A stretch of 36,343 nt of DNA from Reclinomonas americana ATCC 50394 (taxonomy: Eukaryota), in contig PS015521.1 of NCBI GenBank assembly GCA_048213135.1, positions 1-36,343 on the forward strand. Reading direction: 5' to 3'. The notes below the pieces were generated by a model. It did not search any database. It saw only the letters and a program-made list of their open reading frames with translations, and had not been told where the DNA came from. The position numbers and the translations under genes were made by a program. Below are positions 9,302-36,343 of the stretch, piece after piece; position 1 is the first letter of the stretch; each line of letters starts with the position of its first letter.

Positions 9302-11133
9302 CGCGGTGATCCTCATGGTGGTGCAGCCAAACGAGCGCAACCTGGCCGATCAAAAGGGCATTGAGTACTACGCTCTGGCAACGACACGGCATTCGCACGG
9401 AGAGACGCACGCTGACCGAGCTGCATCGCATCGCCTCGGTGGATGCCGCCTCGCGCGTGCTCTTCGTCACCGACAGCAGCCTGAGCACACCGACTGCTGT
9501 CTCCCTGGTGTACTTCCGTGCAGGATACGCTCCCGGCGATTACCCGTCGGAGAAGGAGTGGGAGGCGCGTGAGCGGTTGGAGCACACGTGCGCCGTTTTG
9601 TGTCCCACGGTGGCGTATCAGCTGGCCGGCACGAAGAAAGTGCAGCAGGAGCTCTCCAAGCCCGANNNNNNNNNNNNNNNNNNNNNNNNNNNNNNNNNNN
9701 NNNNNNNNNNNNNNNNNNNNNNNNNNNNNNNNNNNNNNNNNNNNNNNNNNNNNNNNNNNNNNNNNNNNNNNNNNNNNNNNNNNNNNNNNNNNNNNNNNNN
9801 NNNNNNNNNNNNNNNNNNNNNNNNNNNNNNNNNNNNNNNNNNNNNNNNNNNNNNNNNNNNNNNNNNNNNNNNNNNNNNNNNNNNNNNNNNNNNNNNNNNN
9901 NNNNNNNNNNNNNNNNNNNNNNNNNNNNNNNNNNNNNNNNNNNNNNNNNNNNNNNNNNNNNNNNNNNNNNNNNNNNNNNNNNNNNNNNNNNNNNNNNNNN
10001 NNNNNNNNNNNNNNNNNNNNNNNNNNNNNNNNNNNNNNNNNNNNNNNNNNNNNNNNNNNNNNNNNNNNNNNNNNNNNNNNNNNNNNNNNNNNNNNNNNNN
10101 NNNNNNNNNNNNNNNNNNNNNNNNNNNNNNNNNNNNNNNNNNNNNNNNNNNNNNNNNNNNNNNNNNNNNNNNNNNNNNNNNNNNNNNNNNNNNNNNNNNN
10201 NNNNNNNNNNNNNNNNNNNNNNNNNNNNNNNNNNNNNNNNNNNNNNNNNNNNNNNNNNNNNNNNNNNNNNNNNNNNNNNNNNNNNNNNNNNNNNNNNNNN
10301 NNNNNNNNNNNNNNNNNNNNNNNNNNNNNNNNNNNNNNNNNNNNNNNNNNNNNNNNNNNNNNNNNNNNNNNNNNNNNNNNNNNNNNNNNNNNNNNNNTGT
10401 GCTGGCCCAGTTGCGTGCTCACATTTTCTGCCCCTTCTTTTTGTGAAAGGCCACGCCTGAACGACGCGGCAGATTTGTGCCGGACGCCGACGAGCGACGA
10501 CGCCTGAGCGACACGTTCATGGGGCAATTCGCTCTCGAGGACACGGATAGCACAACACTGACTGCCATTCGTGACGCCGCGGCTCATCCCGAGAATTATG
10601 TGCTCAAGCCGCAGCGCGAGGGTGGCGGCAATCTGCTTTTTGGCGAGGAGCTGCGCCGCACCGTGCAGCGCGTGTTGGACGCCAAGGTCTGTGCTCGCAA
10701 CAGGGTGACTCGTCTTCTGACCACTCACTTCGCGCATCATCACAGACGGACGACGAGCGCATTCATTACGGCGCCGAGTTCACGCTAATGAGCCGCATTG
10801 ATGCGCTGTCGGTGGAGAACTCGTACATTTTGCGCGACGGTGCTCTGTACCACGGACCCGTGCAAAGCGAGTTTGGCATCTACTCGTGTTTCTTGGGGTG
10901 CGTCGTGTCGTTTTGTGTGCCTGCCACCTACCGTGAGTTGTCTGCCTCACATTCCCCGCCCCGCTCGCAGCAATGGCAAGGCCGAGTACGTCAACTACTT
11001 TGCCGGCTACCTGGTGCGCACCAAATCTACTGGCACGCAAGAGGGTGGTGTTGCGGCGGGCGCCTCGGCCCTGGACTCCCTCGCCTTGGTCGACAACGCC
11101 AGTGAGATACCCGCGGCCAAGTCCACGACGTGA
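9302..11133 (+). CDS. GSS: Glutathione synthetase (eukaryotic type), central and C-terminal exons; gapped, with one apparent +1 frameshift near 9369
   Basis: Motifs VQPNERNLADQ, VYFRAGYAPGDYPSEKEW, CPTVAYQLAGTKKVQQEL, YVLKPQREGGGN, SEFGIYS, GYLVRTK and EGGVAAGASALDS. Introns at 10410-10472, 10687-10746 and ~10898-10970; stop at 11133. Confidence 0.95.
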
Positions 11134-11211
11134 TATTTAGCCAGCAGTGAACAACAATAACAGACTCTTTTTTTTACACATATATGTTTTCAAGTTTTTC
11201 TCGTTTCCCCA

Positions 11212-14200
11212 CTATGGTATCGTGTATGTCGACGGACTGCGCGCAGCCACTTGCTGCGTGCAGCGTAGTGTCTCCACACAGTTCCGCAGCACAGTCTCCA
11301 ATTTTGGCTTGTGAATCGGTTTCACGAGGTAGTCGCTCATGCCCACACTCAAGCACTGGTCGCGTGTTTCGGGTCGTGCATCGGCCGTAACACACGCCAC
11401 AAACAAGTTGCATAAGCGTGGATCCTGCGTGGTTGGGTGAGCACGCTGGAGACAAGCGGCAAGCAAAAACAAATGCTGACCTTGCGAATTTCAATGACGG
11501 CCGAGATGCCATCCATTTCGGCCATGTTCTGCAACGCAAACGACGGAGGTGAGAGGAATGCCGGCTCGACCAATAGCACCACCAGTAGAGTATGCGACGC
11601 AACAAGATCCATCAACACACACTGGAAGCGGCTCGCATCGGCCAGAAGCCGATCGAGTGCGCGCCGACCATTTTCTTCGACCACCGCCGTGTGACCAAGT
11701 TGCTGTGTGCGCACGCCCAACACAGTGAGACGCACGCACAGCCAACATTATCCGCAAACGACGACGCACCTCCAACATCCGCACAATGACTTTCTGATTC
11801 AACTTGTTATCCTCCACCACCAACACATTTAGTGCTTTCGACGACTCCTCCGTGTCAACCGCTTCGAGAAGATCAGGCGGCAGCTCGTCCACCGACACGT
11901 GCCGCTGTTGTTGAACTGCCAGTCGACGCGTCAGCTGCTCCAGCAGTATCACCCGTTGTACGGGCACAGAAAGGATCGACATGGAGGGCGGGAGGCCTGT
12001 CGCAGGAATCAGCACGCAGATCGACAAGCAGACGACACAATACACGCTGCGCACCTTCGGGGCGCCAGTTGCGCCGCCCGATCAAAACTAGAGGCGGATC
12101 GGTAGTTACCGCACCGCACCGACTCGCTCTGCGCCACGCGCGCGTGTGAGTACCACTCACCACCACACAAAGGCAAGCAAGAGACCACAAGACGCAACGA
12201 TAAGCTCAACAAATGGTGCACAAGATCCACGGCTCCACGTAGCCTCACGTCGAGCACAAACACACGCTGCGACTGCCTCACAACCAGTGTCAGCCACAAC
12301 GAGTGCAACTCACCAGGAGGAATCATGTCGCACGCCACGCACCGTAACCAGACCACCAGTGGCCGCCCACTGCGTCATGCAAACACGCGCGTCGTCTGCA
12401 TTGGTGACAACATCACACCTGGCGCCAGCGGCCAGTACGTGCGCTCGAACACTCTCTGTCAGCACTTGCCCCTCCGACACGATAGTGACGGAGTGCAGTC
12501 GACATATGCTGCGCGCCTGTCTCAAAATGCGAGCGTGACGAGCGTCGCCGACATCAAGCACCATGCTGCTGCCTATGCTGGAGTTGCCTGCTCCCAACAG
12601 CAATCAATTTTACATGTGCAACAGAGACACAACAAAGCAGGTGACGCGCGCACCATCTTCCTGCGACACTCGACTGAGCTGACATGTGAACAAGAACGTG
12701 GTGCCTGCACCTTCGACGGACTCGAACCAAATCACACCGCCGAGTCGACGCACAAACTCTTTCGAAATCACCAGGCCTACAACCATTGTCAGCATCGTTT
12801 GTATCACAACCCTCTCTGCCACCATATGTGCGACTCACCAAGGCCGGTGCCACCAAAGCGACGAGTGACAGACGCATCGAGCTGCACAAACGAACGGAAG
12901 ATAATGTCCTTGGCCGACTTGGGCATTCCGATACCCGTGTCTGTCACTGAAAACAGGATAACAGCCGCCTCGGGGTCAAACTGTGCGATTTGCCGACTCG
13001 TATTGAGCGGCCGAGACGAGGGGGAAAAACATTAGACTCATCCCCGACGCAACCGCAGGAATCTCCTCATCGGCACCATCCGGCCGCCACTGGCGGTACT
13101 GATCCATCACCTCGACGTACGAGGCGGCATTCAACTCTTTCACACGCAGCACTACATGCCCTGTACCGGTCGCAGCAAGCATAAGATACATGGGTTGGCG
13201 CACGTGATGGTGGCCTTGCCCTACCGGACTGTGTAAACTTGACGGCATTCGACAGTAGATTGAGAATGACTTGCCGCAAGCGCGGTTCATCGCTAATCAC
13301 GTGATCGTCGCCAGCGGTGTACACGCTGGCCAGCTCCAACTCCTTCTCCATGGCCGCCGTGTACACTGCATGCCGACACGTGAGGTTCTTCTGACGCTTT
13401 CACAGCACGATCGCAAACAAAGCTCACCAATCTCCACAGCACTCTCCACACAGCTCAGGAGCGAGAATGGTCTCTTCTCCAGCACCAACTTCCCGCTTTC
13501 AACCTTGCTGAGGTCGAGCACGTCCTGAATGAGGTCAAGCAGTGCCTTGCCGGCCAACTGGATGGTGGCCACACAATCGCGCTGCATTTCGTCCAGATGC
13601 GTGCCCATGATAACGGAGCACATGCCGATCACCGAATTCAGTGGCGTCCTGCAGCGCGCGGCAGCAACAGAGGGTAGATGAACTCAACAGCACACGAGGG
13701 CGATGATCAACCGGCAAGAGAACAAACCTCAGCTCGTGGCTCATGTTCGAGAGGAACTCGCTCTTAGCTTGCGACCCAGCCTCGGCAGCCTCCTTGGCAG
13801 CTCGCAAGTCGGCTTCGTATTGCTTCTCAGCCGTAACATCGGTCACCGTCAGCACAAACGACGGGTCGTCGCCAGCTTGAAGCCTGCAAAAAGAGGGAGA
13901 CGACCGTGCGACGTGAGTTTTTTTCGCGTCGAGAGACTCCGCCCACCCTCAACACGAGACTCAACCGCATGGAGACCACATTCCAGTGCGTGGCGAGGTC
14001 GCCGGTTTCGCAGGCAAACGAGTCTGGCGCAGTGTCGCTCTGGTGGAAGTATTGCTGTAGCCGAGCGATGACATGGCCCGGCACACCGCGATCTCGGAAA
14101 AACTCGGTCACCGACAAGCACAAGTCAAAGTTGTTACCCGATACGAAACGCGAGCTGCAGATGTCAACGATGAGGCTGCTTAAAGGCAAGGGAAACAGAG

Positions 14201-17118
14201 AGAAAGAGAGAGCAGCTATGCGTACCTCAGGCCGGACACATCCACCTCGTCGGCGAACATGCGAAGGAATGCGGAATTCACAAACTGTACCACACACTGG
14301 TGCGACGGCATCAGCTTGCGCACAACCAGCAGACCCTCCTTGGTGCTCTCCATGGCCCTCTGGTGCAGTCTGCGAGTTGTACACACGAATTAACAGCCGT
14401 GAGCAACACCATGCTGTCAAGGTGCACGACTGAGAGAAGCACACGCACGCAACGTGAGTTCACGCTGAGCATTCAGCTGCTCGGTCATGTCGATGACGGC
14501 AATGCCGACCGAAGTGGCGCCGCCACTGGAGAGTGGGAAAATGCGCAGCATGCAAATGCAGTCGAGGAGCTGGAATCGCGGAACGATGCGGGCCGATCGC
14601 GTGGTCGCCACCAGCCGGTACTCGTTGAGCAGGTATCGCGTCTTCAGCGCCGCTGGCAGATTGCTCAACTCGGCAGCCGGTTTGAGCAGCGCCCGGCTGG
14701 ACATCCGATGTGAATATCGACTGCGGCTGCCCTCCGAATGCATGCTGATGCTGTCGCCAATGTCAAAGTCGACATCGCTGTCAATTGAATCGTCGTCGTC
14801 GCCGTCGTCACCGTCCAGCGCATCCTCCGTGACTGCCAAGTGTACGCGTGAGTGAAGATTGTCCTTCCCCGAAGTCTTTGCCGTGGTTGACGCAACCCGA
14901 TTGACGCGCACTACACCGTCGACCGTGCCACTGGAACCAGTTGCGGAATGCATGGTTGGCCACTTCCACGGGAAGACTGACTTGGCACGTCTCGGATTGA
15001 TCGTCACCGGCCAGGTCCAGCTGCGACAGAGACTCTGTGTTGAAGACAATCACGCCAACCTCAATGTTGCTGTGTGTATGCGAGCGTGAGACAAGGACGC
15101 GACCGAGGGAGGCACCGCGTGAGCAAGGCGCAACTCAAAGATGTCCTGGTACACGGTAATGGTGCGCGCAGCGGCCTTGCGCTCACTAAGGTCCGTGAGT
15201 TCCACAATCACGCTGTCGGCCGCACCATCATAGCAGAGAGCCTGCGGCAGAAGAACCGTGAGTGGAATCACGCACAATGCGTTTGGGGAATGAGGCAGAC
15301 GCACGTGGTCTTGCGGTACTGGCTTAAACTGCAACAGACACCACTTGGTCTGCCCGTTACCAGTGTTGATTCGAGCCTCCAACGAAGACTGCACCAGCAC
15401 CGCCATCAGAAGATCCTCGAGTCAACAAATGATGCATCTTCTCTATTACGCAACATCGTGCCCCGTGCGAATGGATCTTGTGGTTGTCAACACCACGGCA
15501 TCGGCGTCCACCACCGCCACCAGCGACGAGAGGCCACTGCCCACGACCGCTCCATTCGTCTCGCCACACTCGTGACAAAAGGCTGTGTTGGCAAACTGCA
15601 CCTTCAAGCCGAGATGAAGTGCGCTGAGATCGAATGACTGCGCGGTCCGAGAGTGAGCATCAAGAGTGAGCATCAATCCGCTTTCTCCCCCTTGCATACC
15701 GCTTCGTACTCCTCCAAGGCGCATCGCGGAATCTTCACCACAGCGAGGGGTTGCTTCACCAGACTGAGTGCACTCGTCAACGTGTGCATCGCCACGGATT
15801 GCTCCACTACGTCCGTGACATCCTGCTCTTCGACAAGGAAGAAGCGCGATCCTTTTTCTTGCTGCAGCAGCCGCCGGGCAAACACACGGTGATATCTGCG
15901 CCGCCGGCAGAAGAAGAACAGCTGAGACGGGGCCCATGTAGAGAAGAGAGACACTCGTGAAGACAGACAGACCGTCGGCCGTTGGGCATCGTGGCGCGCA
16001 GCTGCGGCGCCGAGTACGACTCGCCGTCCACAAACACCTGACGGCGTTTTCGAGTGAGCCAGCTGTGACAAGAGTAGCACGCCTGGAAATACACACACTC
16101 ACCGATTTGACAAGCATCTGCACGGCACGACGATCGTCGAGGTGCGGCAAAAACTGAAGCTGCCAGAAATCACTGTGCGGGGAGCACACAGCGCACGGAC
16201 ACGCAACGGCCTCTGCGCCGCCCGTCGGGGTCGCGCGATTGCGGCACTCGAACAGGTCATTGTCGGCCGCATCGCGAACCTCGACCAAATTCTCGGCACC
16301 GATCACATTGTATGCCTCGATGGCGGCTGCGTTGTGGAATACCACGCTGCCGTCCTCGGCATACACGGAGACGTAGCTCGACGTGCGTCGAATCACTGCG
16401 GAGGAGTAGGATGGTGATGAGCCACGGTCGGTGGCCGGAGGGTCACAATGAAGAAACCAGGCGCACCATCGGTCCACAATCGCATGTTGCGCTCGTTGCG
16501 CAAGGCGTCCGGCAGTGGCGTGGCCTCGTTGAAGAGCAGCGTCCGGCCCGACAGTGACACATACGGCGACAACAGAGATCGCGTCCGCACCGCCTTGCCC
16601 TGCACTCACCAGTTAACCAACACAAACAGATGGCAAAACTCCATTCGACAAAAGGGCGCTTGCCTTGGGCTGCCAACAGTGCGACAATTAGTAACCTCCA
16701 AAACGGCAATTGAGGCAATACAGCAAATACGCAACGTTATACGTGAAATTCACCACAACCGGAATCTGTGAATGCCACTGCTCTCGCAGCTGGTGCACAG
16801 GCAAAGGGTGAGTGAGTGAGGACATGGGTGCGAGAAAAACAACTCTCGGCACACCTTTCGCAAAAACATGCTGGATTCGGCGCTCATATCCTTGAACGAG
16901 CGACTAAACATCTCACTCAACGACGGCGAATTCCACAACTCCAGTGCGCTCTGTTATTAGTGCGCACAGATATACACATGTCAGTGTTGCGCTTACCGCA
17001 CATCAAGGGAGAGCGAAGAGAGGACGCACCTTGTTCGCAAAGCGCATGCAATAGTGATCCAAGTCCTGAAATGAACAGAGAAAAACGAAGATCATTTTAT
17101 GCTTTCTCGATGAGGCTT

Positions 17119-17154
<36 letters not shown>

Positions 17155-17601
17155 GACGCAACAAACACCCAAAAGGGAGTCTGCACTTGCGCGGCCAGTC
17201 TGTACTGTCGGGTGAGAAGAAAATCACCGTACTCACCAAAGATGGACACTAATTCGCGGACGGAAACCAGGCACGCACACACACATTCACACACACTCTC
17301 TCTCTCTTTCACACACACACGCACACACGCACCTCTCGAGGAACTCATAGTCAATGTCCTCGCCTCCGGGAACCACGCTGTAACGCGACCACAACGGCGA
17401 CACCTCTCTCGCGTGTCCTGCGCTCATCGCCTCTCCTCCTGCTCTCGAGCTCTCCCCGCACGCGCGTCCTCGTCCTGCGCCACTGCCTCCCTCATCATCG
17501 ACTTCAGCAGCAGCAGCAGCAGCAGCGACGCTCTCCTCATCGTCGGCGGACGGATGAGGAGGAGTCGGAGGTCGCATCTTCTCCAAGTACACAAACGGCA
17601 T
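11212..17601 (-). CDS. Hybrid histidine kinase 1: ~5 PAS-like domains, HisKA, HATPase_c, pseudo-receiver, receiver; more than 20 introns
   Basis: H-box [23 protein letters not shown]-box [18 protein letters not shown]1/[10 protein letters not shown]...[19 protein letters not shown]2 [10 protein letters not shown]. Receiver [11 protein letters not shown]...VLMDL|NMAEMDG...VTADA...LVKP. PAS hallmarks FAN.AF and the terminal motifs DVTD, DLSERK, DMTEQ, DVTAEK. No obvious TM segment. Confidence 0.93.
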
Positions 17602-18118: not shown

Positions 18119-21100
18119 TCATGGTGCGCTTGCCAGTGTCACCGTCGGCGTCGTCGGCGTCGACATTGTGGCGGAGAGTCGCCGTTGCTGCCGGAGGTGC
18201 TGCTGGCACAGGTCCAAGGTGGCCACCAGCTTTGGCTTGTGGATGGGCTTGACGAGGAAATCATTCATGCCCACACTCATGCAGTGTCCGCGCGTCTCCG
18301 GGCGAGCGTCCGCTGTCACGCAGGCAATGAATAGGTCCGTGAAGCGCGGATCCTGATAGCACAGTGAGCCACCTGTATCGCAGCAATATCGTGCACCCAC
18401 CACACCACACACACCGCACGAAGTTTCGCTGTGGCCGTCAGACCGTCCATTTCGGCCATGTTCTGCAATCATCACGCACGCTCGCGTCAGGCAGAGAGGA
18501 CTTTGTTTGTGAGGAAGGGGAAGGGGAGAACGAAACCAAATCCATCAACACGCAATGGAAGCGTGTGGGTTCCTCCGCCAGTCGGTTGAGCGCGCAGCGC
18601 CCGTTCTCCTCGACAACAACGCGGTGGCCGAGTTGCTGCGGCGGACGGATCGGCAGCGTCAGTGACGATACTCGCTCCGAACAACACAGATCACCACAAA
18701 CCTCAAGCAGTCGCATGATGACTTTCTGCACGCGTGCACACACACACACCCCTCCCGAGTGAGCATTCGTGACAGTTCCTCACATGAGCAGGCGGTGCCT
18801 CACGCAACTTGATTCAAGCGGTTGTCCTCCACCACCAGCACATTCAACGCATTGCTCGAGCCCTCCGCATGATGTGTGTCACTGCAGTCGCACTCCGCAG
18901 TCGCGGTCAATGGACCGGCGACCGGCGCGTGAGTCGGCGACAGCAGACGCTGTTGGAACACGGCGAATCGCTCCGACAAATCCCTGCAAAATGGCAGTCG
19001 TTGTACCGGGAGCGACATGCACGACACGTGCAACGACAGTCCTGTTCATCGTCATCATCATCAACCGTCAGTGAGAAGCACACGAGAAATTCCCCGAGCC
19101 ACACACCTGCTGGCCGCTGACTGCGCTGCCCGAATAATATTAGTGGTGGCAACTGTAATGGACCTGCCTGCAGTCGCTCTCTGTGTGGCAAAGGACGAAT
19201 GAGGAGAGAATCGCAACACGTAGCGCACACCACAACACGCAACAGAGCGTTGAGGCATTCGTTTGTCCACTCCATCACCCATGGTAATCGTGTATCCAGC
19301 ACCACCACCCGCGGTGTCTGTCGAAAGAACAAGGTCGGCAAGTGAGGTGAGCAAGGGAGGACACAAGAAATAACACGTACCGAGAATGGTGGCTCTGCAA
19401 ACGACCACTCGCGAAGCAACTCAAATACTTCCTCCTGGGCGCGCATGATGCGCGGACGGCAGCCAACCGAACGCACGTGCTGTTGTATCGACTCTTCCAC
19501 TGCCGCACGCGGTGTCACGATCACCACCTCTTGACCTGCGTACCGTCGGCATGCCTCCATCACCGATCGCCGACTCTGCGACGCCTCAACAACGCCGGCC
19601 TCCTGACTCGCCTCTGCATGTGTGGGGGGCAAATCGGTGAGCAGAATGCGCAGCTACTGGCTGGAATAGATGTCGTGGCCACCACCCACCAGGTAGTCTG
19701 CCGAGCTGACACGTGAAGAAGAATGTGGTGCCGACACCCTCGGTAGACTCGAACCAAATGACGCCACCGAGGCGTCGCACAATCTCTTTCGAAATCACCA
19801 GACCTGTCACAGGATAATGAATATCCACTCTTTGCTGCCGCACGCCCTGCACTAAAATAGACTCACCGAGACCGGTGCCACCGAAACGACGAGTGACAGA
19901 GGCGTCGAGCTGCACGAATTGCTGGAAAATGTGGCTCTTGGCCGTCTCTGGCATACCAATGCCGGTGTCGCTCACCGACACCAGTACTGCGGCCAGATCG
20001 TCGTCAAACTGCAAGTCAGTGAAGGGGTGAGTGGGTCCGATTGCGCCGACCTTTAGTCGCTCGATGACAACTCAACTGGTGGCACTTCGCTCGTGTTGAG
20101 GACGATACCCGGCTGCCATCGCGTGTATCGCTCCATATTCTCGGCGTAGGCTGCCGCATCGAGTGACGACACTCGCAGCACCACGTTTCCTGCGCCCCCG
20201 CCTCGACATAAGCACGGGCGGCCACGACAAGAAACAACTCACATACGTACCGACTTCGGTGAATTTGACGGCGTTGGACAGGAGGTTGAGAATGATCTGC
20301 CGCAGTCTCGCTTCATCGCTCACCACTTCGTCGATGGTGGTGGAGCACACACTCGCCAACTCGAGACCCTTGTCCGACGCCGCCGTGTACACTTGCCAGC
20401 AGAATGTATTAGACAGGTGCATTAGAAGAAACAGCAGTGCTGCAATACTACTTACCAATCTCCACCGCACTCTCCACACAGCTGATGAGTGAAAATGGTC
20501 TCTTTTCCAGCACCAACTTCCCGCTTTCCACCTTGCTGAGGTCGAGAACGTCCTGAATGAGGTCAAGCAGTGCCTTACCGGCCAGCTGGATGGTGGCCAC
20601 ACAATCGCGCTGCATCTCGTCGAGTGGCGTCTCCATGATGACACTGCACATGCCAATCACCGAGTTCAACGGCGTCCTGTAGCACGTGATGAGATGCACA
20701 GTCGACGATTATCGAGACAAAAAGACACACACACGCGCGCGAGGACCAACCTCAGCTCGTGACTCATGTTGGAGAGGAACTCGCCCTTGGCTTGCGATCC
20801 AGCCTCCGCCGCTTCTTTCGAAGCCCGCAAATTGGCCTCGTACTGCTTCTCGGCAGTCACATCGGTCACCGTCAGTACGTAGGACGAGTCGGAGCCCGAC
20901 TCCCACCTGCGACAACAGAACAGAGCAGCTCAGTTGTGATACCAGCATTCTCAACCACAAGTCCCACAACGCACACACCTCATGCACACAATGCTCCATC
21001 GCGTCACGCTTCCCCCATTGTCACACTCAAAGGAGGCCGTCGACGTGGACCCCTGGAGCAAGTATTGTTGTAGAAGGCTGCTGGCCGTGTCGGGGACGTG

Positions 21101-24100
21101 GCGATCGGAGAAAAACTCATTCAGTGGAATGTACAAATCGGCCATCTCGGACGATGATCGGGAACTACGGCGGTTGAGAATGAAAGAAGGGTGACGCAAG
21201 CGCGCACACACACATGCACCTCGACACGCTGGAATCACCGCCAGCCGCGGCGGCATTCAGGTCCTCGGGAAACATGCGCAAGAATGCCGAGTTGACAAAT
21301 TGCACCACGCACTGCTGCACCAGCTCCACGCGCTTGATGATGAGCAGGCCCTCCTTGGTGCTTTCCATGGCGCGTCGGTGCAATCTACCGCGAACGCAGA
21401 TGAGCACTCAGGCGAGGGATTACTTCTCCCTGCTTCCCATCCTCTCCTCACGCACGTCAGCTCCTGGCGCGTGTTGAACTGCTCGGTCATGTCAATGAGC
21501 GCCAGGCCGACGGAGGTGGTGCCGCCGCTCGACAGCGGAAAGATGCGCAGCATGCAAATGCAGCCATAGATGTGAAACCGCGGCACAATGCGCGCCTGCC
21601 GTGTGGTGGCCACCGTCACATACTCGGCGACGAGGAAGGACGTGCGCAATTCTGGCGGGAGCTCGGGCATCTCGCGCCGGTTGCGTGGAATGCTCAATCG
21701 AGCCGGGTGGCTGTAGTACTGGCTGTCATGCTCCGGGATGCGGCAGTCTTCGGCAAAGTCCTCGCCTTGGATGCTGCAGTCGGTTACTGCGGCGGCGGGA
21801 AGGATGCAAGGGGTCAGCCAGAGAAAATCACTCAATAACGAAACAACAAACAGCGCAACATGAATCCAAACTCGAGTGACTCGGTCGCTGACTGGTACTG
21901 CGCATCTCCGCTGCTGTTGTCAGCAGCGAGCCTGCACGCAGTCGCGCGAAAATAATGAGTGAGCAACGAGAGCGAACACAGTAACAAAGTGCAGGAAAAA
22001 TGCAAGCGCAACTTGCATCTTCACTGGGTCGCTGGCGACGTCCGTGCAGGGCCAGCCACTGGCGAAAGGCATTGTTGGCAACCTCGAGCTTGAGGTCAAC
22101 GTCGCACACGGAAGATCCGTGCTGACCAGACAGATCAGAGTTCACCGCGTTGTCAATGTTGAAGACCACGACGCCGACCTCGATGTTTCTGCGCGGAATG
22201 CGATGAGAACCCTGAAGGGAAGGGGAGCAGAGAGCAGAGAGAAAAGGGGAGAAGGGGAGGAGAGGGATAGAGAGAGAGAGACAGAGAGAGAAGGAGAGAA
22301 AAGTGGACAAGAAATGGGTGAAGATGAGGAGGTGGACGGGAAGGAAGTCGAGGAGAAGCAGACGGAATTGGAGAAGGAGGCCAAGGAAGAAGAAAACGCG
22401 GCATCTGTGAAGCACGCAACTCGAAAATGTCCTCATACACGGTGATGGTGCGCTGGGAGGCCTTGCGTTCGCTGAGGTCGGTGAGCTCGACGATGAGACT
22501 GTCGCTCGTCGACTCGTTGCGCAGTGCCTGCACGCGAGCGGTAAGCGCGCCAGCCAAGTTTCACGCACTCGCGACGACAGTGACGCAACACTATCTCGCG
22601 GCACCGGCTTGATCTCAAACAGGCACCACTTGTCTATCGCGCGCACTCGAGCCTCCACCGAAGCCTGTAATAGGGAGACGCCGATGTGACGAAGAGTGCC
22701 GAACCCTCCTGCTGGCAAGAAAGCATACGACACCTCTTCGCCCGACTGCACTGCGCGCAACAAGTGCAGCAGCACACTGTCCACGTCCTCGGCAGCCACG
22801 ACAGTCGCCAGCGCCTCGCCCGTCAGCGATGCAGGGCAAGACGGATCGCAATTGCCGCACTCCTTGCAAAAAGCCGAGTTGGCAAACTGCACCACAAAGC
22901 CCTTGCACAGCGCCTCCATGTCGGCCGTCTGTGTTCACGTGTGAGGACGTGTGTGTCACAACAAAATATCCGGCGCTCGAGATGTGAGTCAGACGCGCCT
23001 CTTCAAAGTGCTGCACGGCATCCACGGCGATGCGGACCACCGCCAGCGGCTGCTTCACCAGACTGAGTGCACTTGATAGGCTGTGCACCGCTCCGGTTTG
23101 CTCAATCACGTCGGTGACGTCCTGCTCCTCCACCAAGAAGAAGCGCGGACCGCTCTCTTGCAGCAAGAGCCGTCGCGCGAACACGCTGTGATAACTGGGG
23201 AGGAATGCAAGAAAGAGTAAGAGACACATCGTTCATGGCCAACGCCTGTCGCGCAGCGCACCGTCTGCCACTCGGCATCAGCGCCCGCGTCTGAGGCAGA
23301 GAAAAGATTGTGCCCTCCACGAACACCTACATCCACAGAGTCAGCAGACAGCAGGCGCGTGTGACAACTGCTCACCACGAGCACGCAACTGCTTGCACGA
23401 GGCGCGCCACGGCCTCTCGGTCCTCCAAGTGCGCAAGGAATCGGTGTCGCCAAAAATCGCTGTTCGGCGAGCACGCTGCACACGGGCACTCTTCGACGCG
23501 CTCAGTGTGTCCGGCGGCGCGATTGCGGCACTCGAAATGCACCGGCTCTGTGGCGTCGCGCACCTCCTCGTAGTACTCGGTGCCGGAGAGATCGTGCGCC
23601 TGTGCCGCAGCACCGTTGTGAATCGTGGCGCTGCCATCCTCACAGTAGACGGACAAGTAGCTGCGAGCGCGACGAATAACTGCGCGGCAGCACAGGCAAC
23701 CCCCTATGAATACACCAGGCATGGGGTAAAAGGGGAAGGTGGTGAGCACGCCACTGACCATCGCCACGGAGTCGCATGTAGCGTTCGTGGCGCATCGCAT
23801 CAGGCAGCGGCAAGGCCTCGACTTGGATCAGGGCACGCCCAGTCAGCGATAAGTACGGCGTCCACAGACTGCGCGTGTGCACCGGTTGTCCCTAATTATA
23901 ACAGACGCACGGGCGACAGTGAGGTACATGCACAGACGCAAACGATGCCATTGGTAGCGCACACCTTGGGCTGTGCACAAAGAACAAAATACACAGTTAG
24001 CAACAGCAGCACTCAGTGTAAGTGGAGGAAGGGAAAGCGCAACATTGTACGTGTAGTTGCACGGCACGGGGATTCGTGTATGCCACTCGTCCATCACCTG

Positions 24101-24419
24101 CAACAAGTAAGCAACGAGAGAGAGACAGGAAAACACCAGAGTTGCAATGGACACGCCTTCTCCAAGAAGCGCAGTCCTTCGGCCGAGTAATCAGAGTATG
24201 AGCGGCTGAGCAGCTCAGCGAGTGATGGAGAGTTCCACAGCTCGAGGGCGCTCTGAGGAGGGGGGAAAGAGAAAAGCAGGTTGTGAGAGTGAGAGAGAGA
24301 CAGAGAGAAGTTGCGTTTCACGCAACTCTGTTGGCGTATCGCATGCACATGTTCTCCACATCCTGTATGAATGCACACGACGTGATTCTCTTCGTCAGCA
24401 ATCAGGTGGCCATGGAGGG

Positions 24420-24450
<31 letters not shown>

Positions 24451-24842
24451 AGAGGGAGAGGAAGACAGAGAAAGAAGAATAAGATGCAACACACATATGC
24501 ATGCATTCTCAAACGCAACGTATACCCACAGTGGCGTTTGAATCTGTCGAGCAACACTGCACACATACACACAGGGAGAGAGAGAGTGTGTGTGACAAGA
24601 GTGTGACAACAACGAGTTAGCAAAAAGTTTCAGACTCTCTCTCTCTCTCATGCTCGCATCACTCACGACTCCCAATAGGCATAGTCGACGTCTTCGCCAC
24701 CGGGTCGCACGTGATAGAGAGGCCAGCGCGGGGAGCGAGTCACGTCGTCGTCGTGTTCGGGTTCGGGAACTTCTTCAGCGGAGTCGACCTCGCCCCACCC
24801 ATGTGGCGGCGTCGGTGGCCGCATGCGCTCAGTGAAGGACAT
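18119..24842 (-). CDS. Hybrid histidine kinase 2, tandem paralog of kinase 1 with the same architecture
   Basis: [14 protein letters not shown] start; [48 protein letters not shown]...RRFGGTGLG; receiver VEDNRLNQ...VLMDL|NMAEMDG...FLVKP. Intron positions are mostly shared with kinase 1. Confidence 0.93.
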
Positions 24843-28182: not shown

Positions 28183-28215
<33 letters not shown>

Positions 28216-29990: not shown

Positions 29991-32979
29991 ATGTCCGAAG
30001 TTGGCAAAAACCACACGAAAGAGAGTTTCCGAGCGATGGGCACCAGCACCTCTCGCCCACTCGACAATGTCGTGCTCTCCACACGCTCAGACGAGGTCCA
30101 GTGCCAGTGCGCAATCATTGAAGACTTGCGCCAGCTGCAGGTAAGCACACACACAGAGAGAGAAGAGAAAACACGCGCATTTCGTCAGGACTCCGAGAGC
30201 GGTTACTCTTCTCAATGACATGATTCTCACTCTTTTGTGTGTGTGTTTGTGTGTGTCTCTTTGTGTTTGTGTTGTGTGGCAGGTGCTTCTTGGTCGACAG
30301 CGCAAGGAGCTGACTCCGCATCAAATGGGCGAGTTGTTGTATGATCTCAAGCGACAGCGACATGAGTTTGAGGTCGCCTACAATCAGCGTGATGCGCCTA
30401 AGGTGTGTGTGTGAGAGAGAGTGAGTAAGAGAGTGAGAGAGTGAGTGAGAGTGTGTGTCGCATGTCGCTGCTCTGTTTCCCTGTGAGGTGCATTTTTCCG
30501 GTCGTCATCACGGCTCATTGATTCCGTGCCATTCCACTCGTGTTTATCATGCCTTTTGCTCCCTTCCAGTCGCTGCGCTACTCAGCGTCTCACTTGCGAT
30601 GCTTTCTCGTCACTCAGCGCATCGAATCTGTGTTGTTTCCACTCACGATGATCTTCTACGTCTTCAGTCTTTGTCTCACTCACGATGATCTCTGCCTCCT
30701 GTCACTCTGTCTTTACCATCACTGTCTCATCACTCTTCCCCACAGACAACGGTCAGTGAGGCTCACGAGGACACGCTGCCTGATGTCTTCCACAACACGA
30801 GCGTGTACCCGGTGTTGAGCGACATTATTATCAAGTCGCGGCATCCGCACCCGTGGACGATGGCCATGATGCTCGTCGAGGAGTCGCTGCAGATTCGCCC
30901 GTACAGTTGCGATCGCGCGCCCAGAGTGTGTCGTTTGTGAGTGTGGCTGGCTCACGGGTGTGTGCGCGTGCGTGCAGTGCTGAATGCGCAGACGGCGCTT
31001 GGCAGGGCCGGTCTGGTCGAGAACCTGGTGCGCGTGCTCGCCGGCAAGGGCTACATGGATGGGCCGGAGATCAAGCGTTTGTCGGCTGCCGTGCTCTACT
31101 TGCTGATGAAGGGTGCGTGTTTGAAAGACTGCGTCTGCTGCACGAAAAATGCTCATCATAATGCCCCCCACACACAGACCAACACCAGGACAACCAGACG
31201 CGATTCCGCACTGGCGAGGGTCTCCGGTGGTGCATCACCCAGTTGTACCTGTCGGAGCCGGTGCAGCATGAGTTGCGTCCTCGCCGCACGCCCTCATCTT
31301 TCTTCACATCGGCAGGCCCTCACCCTTGCGCACGTTACAGAATGCACAACATTCCCCCGCGTGTCGGCGAGCGCAACCAGACGGAGCAGGATCAGTATCG
31401 CGTGCAGTTGGCCATGAGTGCCACGGCGCATTTTAGCCACGACAAGGAGCTGTCGGAGCACCTTGGTCATCGGCCGCACCGTTTCAGCCGCCGTCGCCAG
31501 GGCGATCCACGTCGCTTCGACACGCGCCATGTGATTCACCCCACGGCCACCGAGACACAAGGATCCATTCGCCCGCCACTGCGCAAGGATCTGAGGTCGG
31601 TGTTGTGTGTGGTACATTTTCTTGCCCCTTGTCGATTATTAACTCCCCTCCTCTTGCAGCATGGCTGTCATGACGCAAGATGAGTTCGATTCAGTGCACG
31701 CCACCATGCTTCTGCGTGAGCGCAAGTCGCGCAAGCAGTCCACCAGCAAAGCTGTGGTCGGCAGGTGAGCGGACGATGCGTTTGTGTGTTTGCTTGTCGA
31801 ATGCAACAACTTACACCCCGTTCTCCGTATAGCATGCTGCTGAACCGCTCACCGCAAGCCGAATGGGAAACGGCCGTCGCCACTGAGCTGATTTTCGTGG
31901 CGTGTGAGGGTGCGTAGTTCATCATGGCCCCCCACTCGCTGTCTCCATCCCTCACTCTCTCGTCACAGGCAACGAACCAAATGCCAAGTACGTCTTCAAG
32001 GACGGCGGCATTCCAGCGCTGTCGTTCCTGGCGGCGGCCGGTGATCGCACGCACGCGCAGCACAGCGACGAGATGTACGACGTGGCTCGCGATGACGCGT
32101 ATGTGTCGCTCAAGGCCGTTCAGTGCCTCGGTCATCTGGGCCAGGTCGATCCGCTGTCGGCAGAGGTCTGTTATTTATCCGTCTCTCGTCTTTGTCGATG
32201 AACAAGCGTGCTGACTGTTCGTGACGACACGATGCAGGCTGTGCAGCAGTACGACTTGGTGGCCAGCATGCTCATGCGCTGGAAGACGACTGCGCGGTGT
32301 GTATTCCGCCTTGTCAACTCGTCCGTTCTCATGTTGATGAGCTCAACTCTTTTGCATGCACAGTGGCGAGCCGAGTGAACAAAATGTGCCGGAGCGTTTC
32401 GACACGGAAATCGCACACATTGCGAATTGCCTCACGGCCCTCGTTCGTTGCGTGCCTTGGCCTTGTTTGCGCACCCAGTAGTGTTCTTGTGCTCACCAAC
32501 CATTGGATTCAGGCGATTCTGGCGCACGAGGAACGGCGACAGCTGCCCGCAAGCATGCGCGCAATTCGTTTGCCGAAAACCACGGCTTCCGTCTGGTGGG
32601 CGAGTACATGCACGACGTGCGTAACTATTTGTACGTCCGCTCCCAGTCCGAGCTCGGCATGCAGTCGCTGGCGGAGTGCGTGCGCCTGCTGGATGCTTTC
32701 CATTCGTCACACGGTGAGTCGCACGCGTGACACATCTGCCAGTCGATGCACCACGTCTCGCTGTCTCACACGTGCATTCGATAGACATGATCGACTACGA
32801 GGCGGCCATTGCCGATGCGGATCTGGGCGGCTTGTTGGCTGCCATCACTGACCGACTTGACGACGGCAACTGCCCCGATTTCACGCAGGGCTGCCAGATG
32901 CTGCTGCAAAAGTATTTCCCGCACGGTCGCACTGCCAACAGGGATCGCGCGAACCATCAGTGGCGCACCCGCCGTGACC
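29991..32979 (+). CDS. Multi-exon protein with armadillo/HEAT-like helical repeats; 3' end runs into a gap
   Basis: About 12 exons join in frame. ARM-like segments: NAQTALGRAGLVENLVRVL...KRLSAAVLYLL, NEPNAKYVFKDGGIPALSFL, KAVQCLGHL, IANCLTALV. The frame is still open at 32979. Confidence 0.7.
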
Positions 32980-33231: not shown

Positions 33232-35395
33232 CCTGACAGAGATCTCGGCCACACCGCCATCGGTACCGATGGCGTTCACACGGAGCGCTCACGCGCCCTC
33301 TGGCAGCGGCTTGACCGAGGAGACACGCGAGGCCGCCGTTGCGGCATCGGAAGCGGCTCGTGCTCGCACTGGCGCCGCTGGAACAGCAGCCAGTGCCGCT
33401 GCTGGTGACGTGTTGGACCGCGTTCCACGACGCGGCGACATGGCCGTCCCGGAGACTGTCGCTCGACTTAACGCGCGCGAGGACCTAATCCGCCTTTACG
33501 ACGACGCACCACGACGTGCCCGTACTGGCGCTGCGCCGGCCGAGCAACTCGGCTCTGATTTGTCATCCGGTGTCTCATCGGCCGTCGGCCGTGCCGCCGC
33601 TGTGCCAGGACAGTACGGCTCGGACCTGTCATCCGGCGTCTCATCGGCCGTCGGCCGTGCTGCAGCCGCGCCTGGGCAGTATGGCTCGGACTTGTCGTCT
33701 GGCGTCTCATCGGCCGTCGGCCGTGCTGCAGCCGCGCCTGGGCAGTATGGCTCGGACTTGTCATCCGGTGTCTCGTCGGCCGTCGGCCGGGTGGGAGCCG
33801 TGCCTGGACAGTATGGCTCGGACCTGTCGTCTGGCGTCTCATCGGCCGTCGGCCGGGTGGGAGCTGTGCCTGGACAGTACGGCTCGGACTTGTCATCCGG
33901 TGTCTCGTCGGCCGTCGGCCGGGTGGGAGCCGTGCCTGGACAGTACGGCTCTGATTTGTCATCCGGTGTCTCGTCGGCCGTCGGTCGTGCCGCCGCCGTG
34001 CCTGGACAGTATGGCTCGGACTTGTCGTCTGGCGTCTCATCGGCCGTCGGCCGCGCCGCCGCCGTGCCAGGACAGTATGGCTCGGACTTGTCATCCGGTG
34101 TCTCATCGGCCGTCGGTCGTGCCGCCGCCGTGCCTGGACAGTATGGCTCGGACTTGTCGTCTGGCGTCTCATCGGCCGTCGGCCGGGTGGGAGCTGTGCC
34201 AGGACAGTACGGCTCGGACCTGTCATCTGGCGTCTCATCGGCCGTCGGCCGTGCCGCCGCTGTGCCTGGACAGTACGGCTCTGACTTGTCGTCTGGCGTC
34301 TCATCGGCTGTCGGCCGTGCCGCCGCTGTGCCAGGACAGTACGGCTCGGACCTGTCATCCGGTGTCTCATCGGCCGTTGGCCGGGTGGGAGCAGTGCCTG
34401 GACAGTATGGTTCGGACCTGTCGTCTGGTGTCTCATCGGCTGTCGGTCGCGCCGCAGCCGTGCCTGGACAGTATGGCTCCGACCTGTCGTCGGGTGTCTC
34501 ATCGGCCGTCGGCCGTGCCGCAGCTGTGCCTGGACAGTATGGCTCTGACCTGTCGTCGGGTGTGTCGACGGCCGTCGGCCGGGCGGGAGCGGTGCCGGGA
34601 GACGCGCTGTCGTCGACGGAGGACCGCTTCCGACAACTGCGCGACCGTGTGGATTTGTCAAAGTCGCCGGAGCGCGCTACGGCTGCCGCTGCCGGGACCC
34701 TTGGCAGTGCATCGGCGGCTGCTGCCGGCAACGCCTCGCGTCTGACTGACTCTGTTGGCTCGAACGTGGGCTCAGCGGACGACAAGTTCCAGCAACTGCA
34801 ACAGCGTCTCATTGGCGACGCGCGTTCGCGAGTTGGCGATGTCGTTGCGTCTGCGTGTAGGTTTCTGTTCTCCCACTATTTGTCGTGAGAATCTTACTCT
34901 TTTCGATAATGGTGCAGGCCGCCCGTGGCGAGAGCGAAGTCGGCCAGGCGTCCAGTGCTGCGGCATCGGTTCCTGGTGCTGCTGCCGCTGCAGCGGAAGG
35001 CGGCTCCACGGCGCTGAGCGATCGCAAGCGCGAACTGCAGGAGCGCAAGCGCCAGTTGCAAGAGACCATTCAGCAGGCGAAGCTGGCCAGTGCTCGTTCG
35101 GGCGCACTGCCGAATGCCATCACGTCGGCCAACTTTGTTGCGTTTCGCATGTGTTACACTGCTCGTATTTTCGTCGTCGTGCTGACAGGTGGTCTGCCAG
35201 ACGGGAGCACGGCGGCCCGCTGCTGTCCCTGCCGGCGTCAATGACGACGACGACGATGACGACGATTACAATCTCGGTGCTGGACCTGCCGCCGCAGCGC
35301 CTCATCGCGCCCGGTACGACGACATGCGACGCGCCAATGACGGCTTCCGACGCGCCCTCGAGAACGCAGAGCGCCGACGAGACACCAATGTGTGA
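33232..35395 (+). CDS. Ala/Ser/Gly-rich protein with 16 x 22-aa tandem repeats and a C-terminal coiled coil; 5' end possibly in the gap
   Basis: The frame is open from the gap edge (first ATG 33269). Phase-0 introns 34844-34917 and 35137-35188 add the exons AARGESEV...RKRELQERKRQLQETIQQAKL...NF and VVCQ...DTNV*. Confidence 0.8.
33551..34600 (+). repeat. Coding minisatellite, 66-bp unit x16 (GSDLSSGVSSAVGR[AA/VG]A[V/A]PGQY)
   Basis: Units start at 33551, 33617, ... 34541. Differences between copies are mostly synonymous in the + frame. Confidence 0.97.
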
Positions 35396-35617
35396 GCAAT
35401 CACCAGTCTCGACTAGATCCCCTCAAGTTTTGTGTGAAGATGAAAGACAACGAAGAAGAAGAAGAAGACGACGAATGTGTAGGAATGTGCGTGATGCAAG
35501 TGATTTTCCCCCTTTCCCCTTGTGCCGAGTATACATCCCCCTTGGATTTCAACATTTGACTTGGGGGGAGTACACGCCTGCACGGCTCATAGTACACCAG
35601 CTCTTGATGCGCTGGTA

Positions 35618-36343
35618 TTATGTCGCCGCTGCGGCGACTGGTGGCGGCTCCTCATCGTCCACAACCCTCCACACATTTACGCAGCTGTCGTAGGCGGCAC
35701 TGAACAGATGATCGTGATATGTGAGCAGGCACGACAAGCTGCCCGTGTGCTCGCGTAGTACGCGCAGGCAGCGATACTCGTGCGCCGAATCCCACACCTG
35801 GAGCACTCAATCAGTCAGCAGGTTGATTGCACGAATTGACGGCGCCTCACGCAACTCGTACTGTGTTGTCAAAGGAGCCACTGAACAGGTAGTTGCGAGT
35901 GGCCTTGAGCGCCGTGACCATGGCCTCGTGGCCCCACAATGTGGTCACCTCGCCAGCTGGCGCCTGTGGTCCACGACGAATGTCCCACACGCGAATCGAG
36001 TGATCCAACGACCCCGAGTACAAAAAGTAGCCGTTCGGGCTGATCGTCACACAGCGCACCCAGTCGGCGTGCCCCTCAATGTCATTGCACGGCTTGCCGA
36101 GGCGCAAATCGAACACCTTGATGCTCGACTCGCCAGTGCACATGTAGAGGCCGCAGTCTGGCGAAGCAATCATGTCGAATATGCCCCACTGGTAGCCGCC
36201 GACGGATTTTTGCAGTTCAAAGGTTTCACCACGCTGCTCCGTCCACTTGTAGACCTGCAACGGGGCGGGTGTGGAGCGTGTGTGAGAGAAAGAGAGATAA
36301 AGGGGACAGGAAAGGTGCGACAAATCTCCACGCAACTCCAATG
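35618..36343 (-). CDS. WD40-repeat protein, 3' portion (runs off the window)
   Basis: GHADWVRCV...LYSGSLDHSIRVWD, GHEAMVTAL...LFSGSFDNTVR|VWD, EHTGSLSCL...LFSAAYDSCVNVW. Intron at 35855-35798; stop at 35618. Confidence 0.92.

Follow-up and report, generated by a model that had tools for sequence, protein, structure and literature searches.

The results obtained here suggest, with a probability that we put at about 0.6, that GTTGCGT represents a discrete second class of 5' splice site, in which the recognition helix is shifted by one base relative to the ordinary donors. This reading is drawn from the sequence of a single 36,343-nt contig stretch of Reclinomonas americana (hereafter the window), in which 72 introns were modelled. 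The best account of the sites concerned is that they are true GT-AG donors, belonging to short spliceosomal introns of the ordinary kind, and text searches of the literature returned no paper describing a GTTGCGT donor.

In the window gene models GTTGCG was the top donor hexamer, starting 24 of the 72 introns, a share that differed between genes and may be nearer a quarter, since none of the ~21 low-confidence introns predicted in 1-6400 of the minus strand starts with it; the second commonest hexamer, GTGCGT, starts 9 of 72. These models were made without the donor motif, yet the visual selection of 15 tier-2 introns was made with knowledge of the motif. Compared with its frequency among all GT sites of the window (1.26%), the hexamer was strongly enriched at intron starts (binomial p = 1e-27). 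It occurs 57 times in the window versus 36.8 ± 6.1 in dinucleotide shuffles, a count reached in 0 of 100 shuffles, and 22 of the 27 copies of the heptamer GTTGCGT are inferred donors. In 80 metagenome loci with glutathione-synthetase homologues this heptamer has a density of 0.088 per kb, compared with 0.79 per kb in the window. Donor-blind parses again chose GTTGCG most often (9 times). One exonic GTTGCGT in the kinase gene HK-B described below (16201..16207, minus strand) lies within a protein stretch conserved with its paralogue HK-A and is not a donor; a donor-trained parse took it for one. The counts support GTTGCG(T) as a frequent donor, used by approximately one intron in three in the window, and not as the rare tail of a degenerate consensus, an outcome that the initial annotation had itself envisaged. 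All 23 sites proposed in that annotation carry the hexamer on the strand given; its list was incomplete, lacking 12198 (minus), 31272 (plus) and 36336 (minus, at the window edge).

Ordinary donors in the window follow G|GT[G/A/C]NG[T/C], the second class N|GTTGCGT. A G at -1 precedes 37 of 40 ordinary donors versus 2 of 24 GTTGCG donors (Fisher p = 6.8e-12), T occupies +7 in 20 of the 24, and C fills the variable position in 21 of 23 shift-type donors versus 17 of 40 ordinary ones (p = 1.3e-4). When GGTGCGT and GTTGCGT are aligned a single letter differs, and the GCGT block of the latter, which places C at +5, sits one base deeper in the intron than in ordinary donors. We infer from this a one-base register shift: at GTTGCGT donors the recognition helix would lie one base further into the intron, with G+1 filling the slot that G-1 takes in ordinary donors, and cleavage would still occur directly before the GT. 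Since a simple bulged U would still gain from G-1, the loss of this preference favours a shifted helix over a bulge. Introns of the two classes are alike in length, composition and acceptors, and have no common intron body.

A rival account, which we consider distinctly unlikely, dispenses with a second register: GTTGCGT would be just the most frequent form of a loosely defined consensus, the genome being GC-rich, and a textbook U1 would tolerate it weakly, while recognition would in practice depend on exonic enhancers, on U1C or other proteins and on the later U6/U5 checks. Consistent with looseness, other donors with T at +3 (GTTTGT, GTTGGT and GTTTCG) are present in the ordinary register, keeping G-1 and G+5, and all three GTTTGT/GTTGGT donors are preceded by G-1. 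These three are HK-A intron 17 (20677..20750, minus; GTTGGT, with G-1, G+5 and T+6), which splits the HisKA H-box, HK-B intron 17 at the H-box junction (13649..13727, minus; GTTTGT), and HK-A intron 27 (18636..18701, minus; GTTTGT), whose HK-B partner starts with GTGCGT. For HK-A intron 17 the next exon begins at HisKA profile position 15, and moving the donor worsened the score in 114 of 120 comparisons. Human 5' splice sites, moreover, can function with numerous mismatches and in a range of non-canonical registers (Tan et al. 2016, PMC4856993), and GTTTGT is the norm in Entamoeba (PMC4053983). Against this account the GTTGCGT class, far from being looser than the ordinary one, is more sharply defined, being near-invariant at seven positions; the two classes are split by G-1, and predicted pairing of the GTTGCGT class with a textbook U1 falls below that of random GT sites.

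The strongest evidence that GTTGCG sites act as donors comes from the in-register junctions of two tandem histidine-kinase paralogues at which GTTGCGT is swapped for other donors. HK-A, a hybrid histidine kinase gene (18119..24842), and HK-B (11212..17601) both lie on the minus strand, as do all their introns, and both run from ATG (24842 and 17601) to stop with the ORF open through 29 and 28 modelled introns, respectively. HK-A exons match HisKA, HATPase_c and Response_reg, and an alignment of the two proteins over 1472 columns contains 805 identities, the intron junctions of both falling in matching columns. The 17 sites of the initial annotation that fall in these genes (nine in HK-A, eight in HK-B) all fit the uninterrupted-ORF models with junctions in register, and two of the protein motifs it reported as split by such introns, VLMDL|NMAEMDG and TPFWVF|DLD, are present at 11603 and 17162.

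At seven homologous junctions one copy carries GTTGCG and the other a different donor (GTGCGT three times; GTGAGT, GTGTCG, GTTGAG and GTTTCG once each). In HK-A these are intron 3 (24253..24326, GTTGCGT), facing GTGCGT at the same codon boundary, intron 7 (23327..23389, GTTGCGT), facing GTGAGT, and intron 11 (22528..22589, GTTGCGT), facing GTGCGT, all three gapless and top-scoring. In HK-B they are intron 10 (15389..15454, GTTGCGT; HK-A partner GTGTCG), which is top-scoring, intron 14 (14370..14453, GTTGCGT; partner GTGCGT), gapless and top-scoring, intron 20 (12981..13053, GTTGCGT; partner GTTGAGT), and intron 27 (11529..11603, GTTGCGT), which splits the receiver motif mentioned above and pairs with HK-A intron 28 (18463..18536, GTTTCGT). 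Two paralogue junctions carry the shift-type donor GTTGAGT, at HK-A intron 20 (20009..20076) and HK-B intron 16 (13884..13965).

These junctions bear directly on the possibility, which we regard as very improbable, that the true donors lie elsewhere: the introns might start at GC three bases further on (GTT|GCGT) or at an adjacent GT, both intron ends might be slid by one base, or the gene models might be wrong. Real GC-start introns do exist in HK-A (24156 and 22998), GC-start solutions often rank high in raw junction scores, and in-frame alternatives are available at 30906, 35855 (-6), 24519 (-6) and 22012. However, at six of the seven mixed-donor junctions no gap is needed under the GTTGCG reading, while an extra residue appears under the +3 reading; at the seventh, 13053 against GTTGAG, a two-residue indel in a variable loop makes this comparison, like the ±3 nt test, uninformative. 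HK-A intron 26 (18726..18808, GTTGCGT) is absent from HK-B, where the same codons are read straight through, and both its ends are therefore fixed. Donors were also moved by ±3 or ±6 nt and the blastp scores compared against 120 bacterial kinases, and these external homologues disfavoured the shifts: for 18808 the score fell against 58-59 of the 120 and rose against none, and for 11603 it fell against 64-65 and rose against at most one. Sliding both ends by one base would alter a conserved residue at each of these two sites, Lys at 18808 and Asn at 11603.

Five further junctions carry GTTGCG in both paralogues. HK-A intron 2 (24363..24519, GTTGCGT) and HK-B intron 2 (17066..17162, GTTGCGT) conserve frame and phase; intron 5 (23892..24043, GTTGCGC, and 16600..16735, GTTGCGT) is gapless but ranks fourth in raw score behind longer GC-start solutions; intron 12 (22189..22420, GTTGCGT, and 15070..15134, GTTGCGC) is identical in phase; and intron 24 (19181..19243 and 12129..12198, both GTTGCGT) is identical in phase with flanking exons of equal length. 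The fifth, intron 13 (21787..22012, GTTGCGC, and 14833..14896, GTTGCGT), is ambiguous, lying in a variable, poorly conserved region where the rival donor pair 22024/14905 scored 62 versus 58 for 22012/14896, and in HK-A this stretch may contain two introns. Across the 25 paralogue junctions scored, the raw score favoured other, mostly longer GC-start, solutions at five, and these were overridden. At the five shared junctions a GC start 3 nt downstream would be in frame, adding one Val in both copies, and it is solely by analogy that we would set this reading aside.

Outside the kinases, where the initial annotation had proposed six sites, 35855, 32447 and 34844 held, 35137 and 30906 have alternatives, and 10410 is unverifiable. 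Gene C (30749..32979, plus strand), a protein without known family, has ten modelled introns and a 519-codon open frame that runs into an N run; a Pfam scan of ten exons gave no match. Its intron at 32447..32512 (GTTGCGT) is needed, since read-through meets a stop; that at 31272..31340 (GTTGCGT) came from the donor-blind parse, and its retention would also be in frame; that at 30906..30977 (GTTGCGA) is frame-consistent but ambiguous, with an in-frame alternative donor at 30930, 24 nt downstream. A second protein without known family, G33, whose last three exons (33407..35395, plus) form an ORF chain to the stop codon, contributes a GTTGCGT intron at 34844..34917, with a frame change and a stop on read-through, and another at 35137..35188, frame-consistent, without which the ORF ends ~100 nt later. 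In a WD40-repeat gene whose 5' end lies beyond the window (35618..36343, minus; WD40 Pfam matches on both exons), the GTTGCGT intron at 35798..35855 splits DNTVR|VWD, as had been reported, and splicing there gives the spacing of the preceding WD repeat (SGSLDHSIRVWD versus SGSFDNTVR|VWD). A probable second intron of this gene at the window edge (36255..36336, minus; GTTGCGT) has only 7 nt of upstream exon in the window, is pyrimidine-rich and ends in TTGCAG.

The glutathione-synthetase intron claimed at 10410..10449 (plus, GTTGCGT) starts 12 nt past an N run. With the single acceptor that could serve it, it would measure 40 nt, less than any of the other 72 introns, and the exons on either side of the gap overlap by four residues on homologues. 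Assembly gaps are present in this region, and the glutathione-synthetase gene has an apparent 1-nt frameshift.

Such gaps and the frameshift would suit the idea that the two kinase duplicates are degenerating and that their odd donors are splice sites inactivated by mutation. We find this extremely improbable: both kinases, at 55% protein identity, keep ORFs of ~1400 codons from ATG to stop with conserved catalytic motifs, their exons are far better conserved than their introns (57-63% identity in exon flanks, 26-28% in intron flanks), and three genes unrelated to them use the GTTGCGT donor as well. Hardly more credible is the view that a mobile, introner-like element gave rise to the GTTGCG introns, bringing its own 5' end with each copy. 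The first 7-9 bases are common to many introns, and those at 18808 and 35855 are alike over their first 16 nt (94% identity); an all-against-all blastn of 74 introns, however, gave low-complexity CT/GT matches only and no shared body, and donor type switches between homologous introns of these old paralogues.

Regarding the RNA that would read the GTTGCGT class, duplex energies were predicted with the textbook U1 5' end as printed in Tan et al. 2016, ignoring pseudouridines and U1 proteins. Ordinary donors came to -6.96 kcal/mol, the GTTGCG class to -1.51 and random GT sites to -2.82 ± 2.28. Predicted pairing of the textbook U1 is thus weaker for the GTTGCG class than for random GT sites, which makes a diverged or second U1 a real possibility. 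Of what the initial annotation proposed, a separate, one-base-offset class is supported, while the bulged U on a standard U1 looks weak (-1.5 kcal/mol), which adds weight to that annotation's other option, a variant snRNA. A textbook U1 in a shifted or bulged register, aided by protein, seems to us possible but unlikely. When 1024 variants of U1 positions 4-8 were tried in silico, ends of the ACGCACC type were able to bind both donor classes; an Rfam scan of the window found nothing.

Several known systems come close to the GTTGCGT class. Atypical human 5' splice sites can be read in a shifted (+1) U1 register (Roca & Krainer 2009, via Tan et al. 2016, PMC4856993), which predicts the loss of the G-1 preference, as observed here. 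That register is rare, however, the validated human non-canonical registers together making up 1.5% of 201,541 sites (Tan et al. 2016) and using an AAGU-type block that fits the textbook U1, whereas about one third of the introns here carry a fixed GCGU block with poor predicted pairing. The bulge +2/+3 register (Roca et al. 2012; 68 predicted human sites, 54 curated, in Tan et al. 2016) likewise concerns a GUU start, and one bulged U would restore GU-GCGU; it keeps G+1 on C8, however, so that G-1 should help, unlike what is seen in our donors. Ostreococcus lucimarinus, likewise GC-rich and with two intron populations per genome, has atypical GCG-core donors, GTGCGTG, outside chromosome 2, and snRNA changes were raised as a possible complement to the divergent sites (Irimia & Roy 2008, PMC2483917). 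GTGCGTG is nevertheless in the ordinary register, matching our ordinary class (GTGCGT), and the portion of that account covered describes no extra T or second register. In Entamoeba T at +3 is the lineage norm, shared with the GTTGCGT class, but its consensus GTTTGT (Ehrenkaufer et al. 2013, PMC4053983) keeps G+5/T+6 in the ordinary register, like the GTTTGT and GTTGGT donors here, whereas GTTGCGT has C+5.

With regard to mechanism, the 5' end of U1 counts among the best conserved of all RNA sequences, so that a variant is less likely a priori. The U12-type introns, which U11 reads, have a second, highly uniform donor word and a second snRNA, and may offer a working model for GTTGCGT: a uniform second donor word in the same genes, with its own snRNA. 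The U12 word itself is unrelated to GTTGCGT, and the introns described here are of ordinary length, with ordinary pyrimidine tracts and a terminal CAG. The seven near-invariant bases, together with the poor pairing with the textbook U1, suggest that the RNA reading these donors has a 5' end probably complementary to GCG. Tentatively, and at somewhat less than even odds, this reader would be either the resident U1, diverged and able to work in both registers, or a separate, second species of U1.

The minus strand of the window carries two tandem paralogous hybrid histidine kinase genes, HK-A (18119-24842) and HK-B (11212-17601), recognised by codon-scored frames and by tblastn of one region against the other. 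All GT- or GC-to-AG introns near block ends were enumerated in both genes at 25 junctions, and the junction peptides of HK-A and HK-B were scored against each other using a score without any donor motif; the linker region and a single additional intron were assigned by eye. With the 29 and 28 modelled introns removed, respectively, the frames are open from the start of the conserved alignment over 1406 codons in HK-A and 1439 in HK-B, and the ORFs, which begin with ATG at 24842 and 17601, are both terminated by stop codons. The two proteins are identical in 805 of 1472 alignment columns and have their introns in the same columns, and near the junctions the paralogues share 57-63% of the 18 nt of adjoining exon and 26-28% of the adjoining intron. 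GTTGCG is the donor of 18 of these 57 introns, nine in each gene.

The initial annotation had listed 23 GTTGCG sites as a class of one-base-shifted donors, and all 23 coordinates do carry the hexamer; site 12198 in HK-B is a further donor of this kind. The hexamer occurs 57 times in the window, compared with 36.8 +/- 6.1 in shuffled sequence (57 or more in 0 of 100 shuffles), and 19 of the claimed 23 sites have T at +7, versus 8 of the 34 other occurrences. Our intron set (n = 72) joins the 57 paralogue-supported introns to 15 supported by frame continuity, which were chosen by eye in knowledge of the motif. Its donors are GTTGCG (24), GTGCGT (9), GTGAGT (5), GTGCGC (4) and GTGTGT (4), with other GTT words in six cases and GC starts in two. 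Of all 4534 GT sites in the window, 57 (1.26%) are GTTGCG (binomial p = 1e-27). The heptamer GTTGCGT has 27 copies, of which 22 coincide with inferred donors, a single one falls inside a conserved exon (16207) and the other four are antisense or in unresolved sequence. It occurs at 0.79 per kb, where base composition would give 4.5 copies, whereas 80 metagenome loci with glutathione-synthetase homologues (407 kb) hold 0.088 per kb (36 copies versus 42.8 expected). The exonic copy (16201-16207, minus strand, HK-B) is apparently unused as a donor; it might be an alternative one, a 54-nt in-frame 'intron' being possible on paper.

A donor-trained parse of low confidence, used solely for estimating the introns of this stretch, predicts about 21 introns on the minus strand of 1-6400, none with GTTGCG, so the share differs between genes and overall may be nearer a quarter. 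Dynamic-programming gene finders blind to the donor over-spliced and chained genes, and served only as a rough check, excluded from all counts. Short introns are dense in the window (median 66 nt; 48 of the 57 best-supported measure 50-84 nt). The donor-trained parse also splits the HK-A introns 23892-24043 and 21787-22012 (minus strand) into pairs of about 73-81 nt, leaving pieces of 6 nt and 72 nt between them; the second split would add another GTTGCGC donor, at 21859.

All 24 class introns run GT...AG, and with them removed the frames of HK-A, HK-B, gene C and G33 (the last two being plus-strand genes of no known family) are open. Evidence that separates the possible donor positions comes from seven homologous junctions at which only one copy has GTTGCG, the partner donors being GTGCGT (three), GTGAGT, GTGTCG, GTTGAG and GTTTCG (one each). 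At six of these junctions GTTGCG as the donor gives an alignment without gaps; at 13053, whose partner is GTTGAG, the alignment needs a two-residue indel in a variable loop and discriminates neither this reading nor its rival. That rival would cleave 3 nt downstream, as a GC-AG intron with donor GTT|GCGT and the Val codon kept. The raw junction score did favour other solutions at 5 of the 25 junctions, mostly GC-start donors retaining extra residues, and was overridden there for GT donors with gapless alignments; junction 13, where it preferred the pair 22024/14905, is ambiguous. HK-A also has two GC-AG introns, at 24098-24156 (donor GCGTGT, HK-B partner GTGTGC) and 22929-22998 (GCGCGT, partner GTATGC), both on the minus strand and both with G at -1. 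Applied to the class, however, the GC-AG reading leaves an extra residue relative to the paralogue at six junctions, and at 18808 relative to the intron-less HK-B copy, and it lowered the score against external homologues in 64 and in 59 of 120 comparisons.

HK-B lacks the intron at 18808 and continues through these codons without interruption, which fixes the intron at both ends. We rejected a one-base slide of the two intron ends (TT...AGN), since conserved residues would then be replaced, a Lys at 18808 and an Asn at 11603. As an outside test, single donors were moved by +/-3 or +/-6 nt and the resulting proteins compared with 120 bacterial kinases. Moving the donors at 11603 and 18808 made the match worse in 58-65 of the 120 and better in at most one, the remainder being unchanged, and moving those at the H-box junctions 20750 and 13727 made it worse in 114 of 120; in the variable loop (13053 and 20076) the comparison did not discriminate. 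Pfam profiles run on across the junctions with abutting coordinates: the first residue of the exon after 20750 is position 15 of HisKA, and across 19866 HATPase_c ends at 75 and resumes at 77.

Outside the kinases the introns are constrained to different degrees. Gene C (30749-32979, plus strand) has an uninterrupted frame of 519 codons once ten introns are removed, and three of these introns start with GTTGCG: the one at 32447 is required because read-through meets a stop, the one at 31272 is optional because its retention stays in frame, and the one at 30906 has a rival in-frame donor at 30930. In G33 the change of frame needs the intron at 34844, and that at 35137 is consistent with the frame, not compelled by it. 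For the WD40 gene, identified by Pfam at the right window edge, splicing at 35855 restores a repeat spaced exactly like the one before it. A GTTGCGT at 36336 opens an intron-like stretch with just 7 nt of upstream exon inside the window. Site 10410, which follows an N run by 12 nt and would open an intron of 40 nt, is at most a putative donor.

The GTTGCG donors form a separate class, offset by one base, as had been claimed. Of the 40 ordinary donors, which have A, C or G after the GT, 37 carry G at -1, 38 carry G at +5 and 38 carry T or C at +6. Among the 24 GTTGCG donors, only two have G at -1 (Fisher p = 6.8e-12), and 20 have T at +7. Read from -1 the ordinary donor is GGTGCGT, one letter apart from GTTGCGT read from +1, implying that in the class G+1 takes the place of the ordinary G-1. 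The class is also tighter: the variable position is C in 21 of 23 donors of the shifted type versus 17 of 40 ordinary ones (p = 1.3e-4). Among the six other donors with T at +3, GTTTGT and GTTGGT keep G-1, G+5 and T+6 and thus follow the ordinary register, resembling the Entamoeba norm (PMC4053983), and GTTGAGT is a shifted form.

No class difference was seen in intron length, composition or acceptor: T+C amounts to 63% in class introns and 59% in ordinary ones, the ends are mostly CAG, and a branch-site-like CTRAY word is present in 8 of 26 and 10 of 42, respectively. Introns of the U12 type have the donor consensus [AG]TATCCTT, and all 24 class donors have GTTGCG in its place. An origin from mobile, introner-like elements was examined by all-against-all blastn of 74 introns, and as this returned only low-complexity CT/GT matches the class is not a mobile intron family.

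Recognition of the donor by U1 is treated as nearly uniform among eukaryotes, with shifted or bulged registers regarded as a minority curiosity in human genes. Tan et al. 2016 (PMC4856993) describe a human 'shifted' register, in which all pairs of the donor/U1 helix move one position while cleavage stays at GU, and a related mode with a bulge at +2/+3, found at a few dozen sites; the validated non-canonical registers together account for 1.5% of 201,541 human donors. The class donors follow the shifted pattern, in which G+1 would stand in for G-1 opposite C9 of U1: their preference for G-1 is lost. A +2/+3 bulge, in which G+1:C8 and G-1:C9 are kept, is allowed by the sequence, with G-1 in 2 of 24 and weak predicted duplexes; since G-1 would still contribute in a bulge, its absence speaks for the shift.

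Duplex energies were computed with the textbook U1 5' end (the 11-mer printed in Tan et al. 2016), ignoring pseudouridines and proteins. Predicted duplexes of ordinary donors average -6.96 kcal/mol, G+1 lying opposite position 8 in all but one of the 40. For the GTTGCG class the best duplex in any register averages -1.51 kcal/mol, with G+1 at position 9 in just 2 of 24, and 400 random GT sites average -2.82 +/- 2.28 kcal/mol. For class donors on textbook U1, then, the shifted register is not predicted to be more stable than the canonical one. We also modelled 1024 in-silico U1 variants (positions 4-8). Of these ACGCAAC would bind the class best, and 5' ends like ACGCACC are predicted to bind both classes (-10.0 and -7.6 kcal/mol) and would make the shifted register the more stable. 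The modelled duplexes, together with the seven near-invariant bases of the donor, make it a serious possibility that the class is read by a U1 matching GCG or by a second U1. In the most far-reaching interpretation, to which we give roughly one chance in three, the U1 5' end has changed from ACUUACC to an ACGCA type used in two registers, or two U1 species split the introns of the same genes. The changed U1 would read G|GUGCGU and |GUUGCGU in its two registers; the alternative would amount to a major spliceosome with two U1s. Searches of the window found no RNA families (Rfam, gathering thresholds) and no ARAGORN match. The GTGCGTG donors of Ostreococcus are in the ordinary register, and the same thought of an snRNA change was raised by Irimia and Roy (PMC2483917).

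The kinases have further features of their own. Both are about 1400 residues long, including an N-terminal region of about 750 residues without a Pfam family, in which weak 4Fe-4S-like Cys-motif matches fall on one exon only (22734-22928). A protein search with the kinase ORF gave only bacterial relatives, with 36-51% identity in the catalytic core, and a metagenome scan found no relative of the N-terminal domain. The segments 20259-20891 and 13233-13868 (both minus strand) form a single blastn match of 645 nt at 76% identity, spanning three exons and two introns, and protein identity reaches 95% over the HisKA exon, compared with 55% overall; a match running through introns and so similar an exon suggest gene conversion.

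The window itself is 36.3 kb of eukaryotic nuclear DNA (G+C 58%) with five N runs (6473-6660, 7070-7188, 8036-8992, 9666-10397 and 32980-33231; 2248 bases in total), two of which cut gene C and the glutathione synthetase, one each. Pfam scans of open frames placed a eukaryotic glutathione synthetase, in pieces, at 9300-11130 (plus strand) and histidine-kinase, ATPase and receiver domains at 11.2-24.8 kb (minus strand); several genes fall in no known family. The best glutathione-synthetase exon match has 59% identity, the relatives being pelagophyte, green algae and others, and a second metagenome scan gave no close relative (best 53% over the full query span). Mastigamoeba, a GC-rich relative of Entamoeba, was rejected as the lineage because glutathione pathways and eukaryotic histidine kinases are missing from it (PMC8136499). 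The pieces are disordered (6690-6845, minus strand; 9300-9663 and 10450-11130, plus strand), the N-terminal one lying on the opposite strand, and around 9369 the reading frame is displaced by one base compared with homologues. Aligned to homologues, the exons flanking the N run 9666-10397 have four residues in common, so this gap hides a duplication or misjoin, and the disorder points to misassembly, a duplicated copy or a pseudogene. An intronless 460-codon frame (26269-27648, plus strand) has the top codon score of the window (210 bits), no Pfam match and no homologue found in a collection of 5.8 billion proteins.

In literature searches with the donor as a DNA or RNA word and with 'shifted register', no such donor class appeared in titles or abstracts among the best 15-25 of up to 145 matches listed, and it may have been described earlier as a logo. 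In the literature examined, non-canonical U1 registers are not described at this scale or with this uniformity. Gene finders expecting G|GTRNGT would miss or misplace about one third of this organism's introns, which may be part of the reason why none of its proteins was among the matches in the protein collection searched. With about a third of introns using one fixed shifted donor word, the organism would offer a natural experiment, bearing on how mobile the register is, how the cleavage site is fixed with U1 one base off, and whether the U1 5' end and its sites can co-evolve. If the interpretation of a changed or second U1 is true, the spliceosome's most conserved recognition RNA has been rewritten in this lineage.
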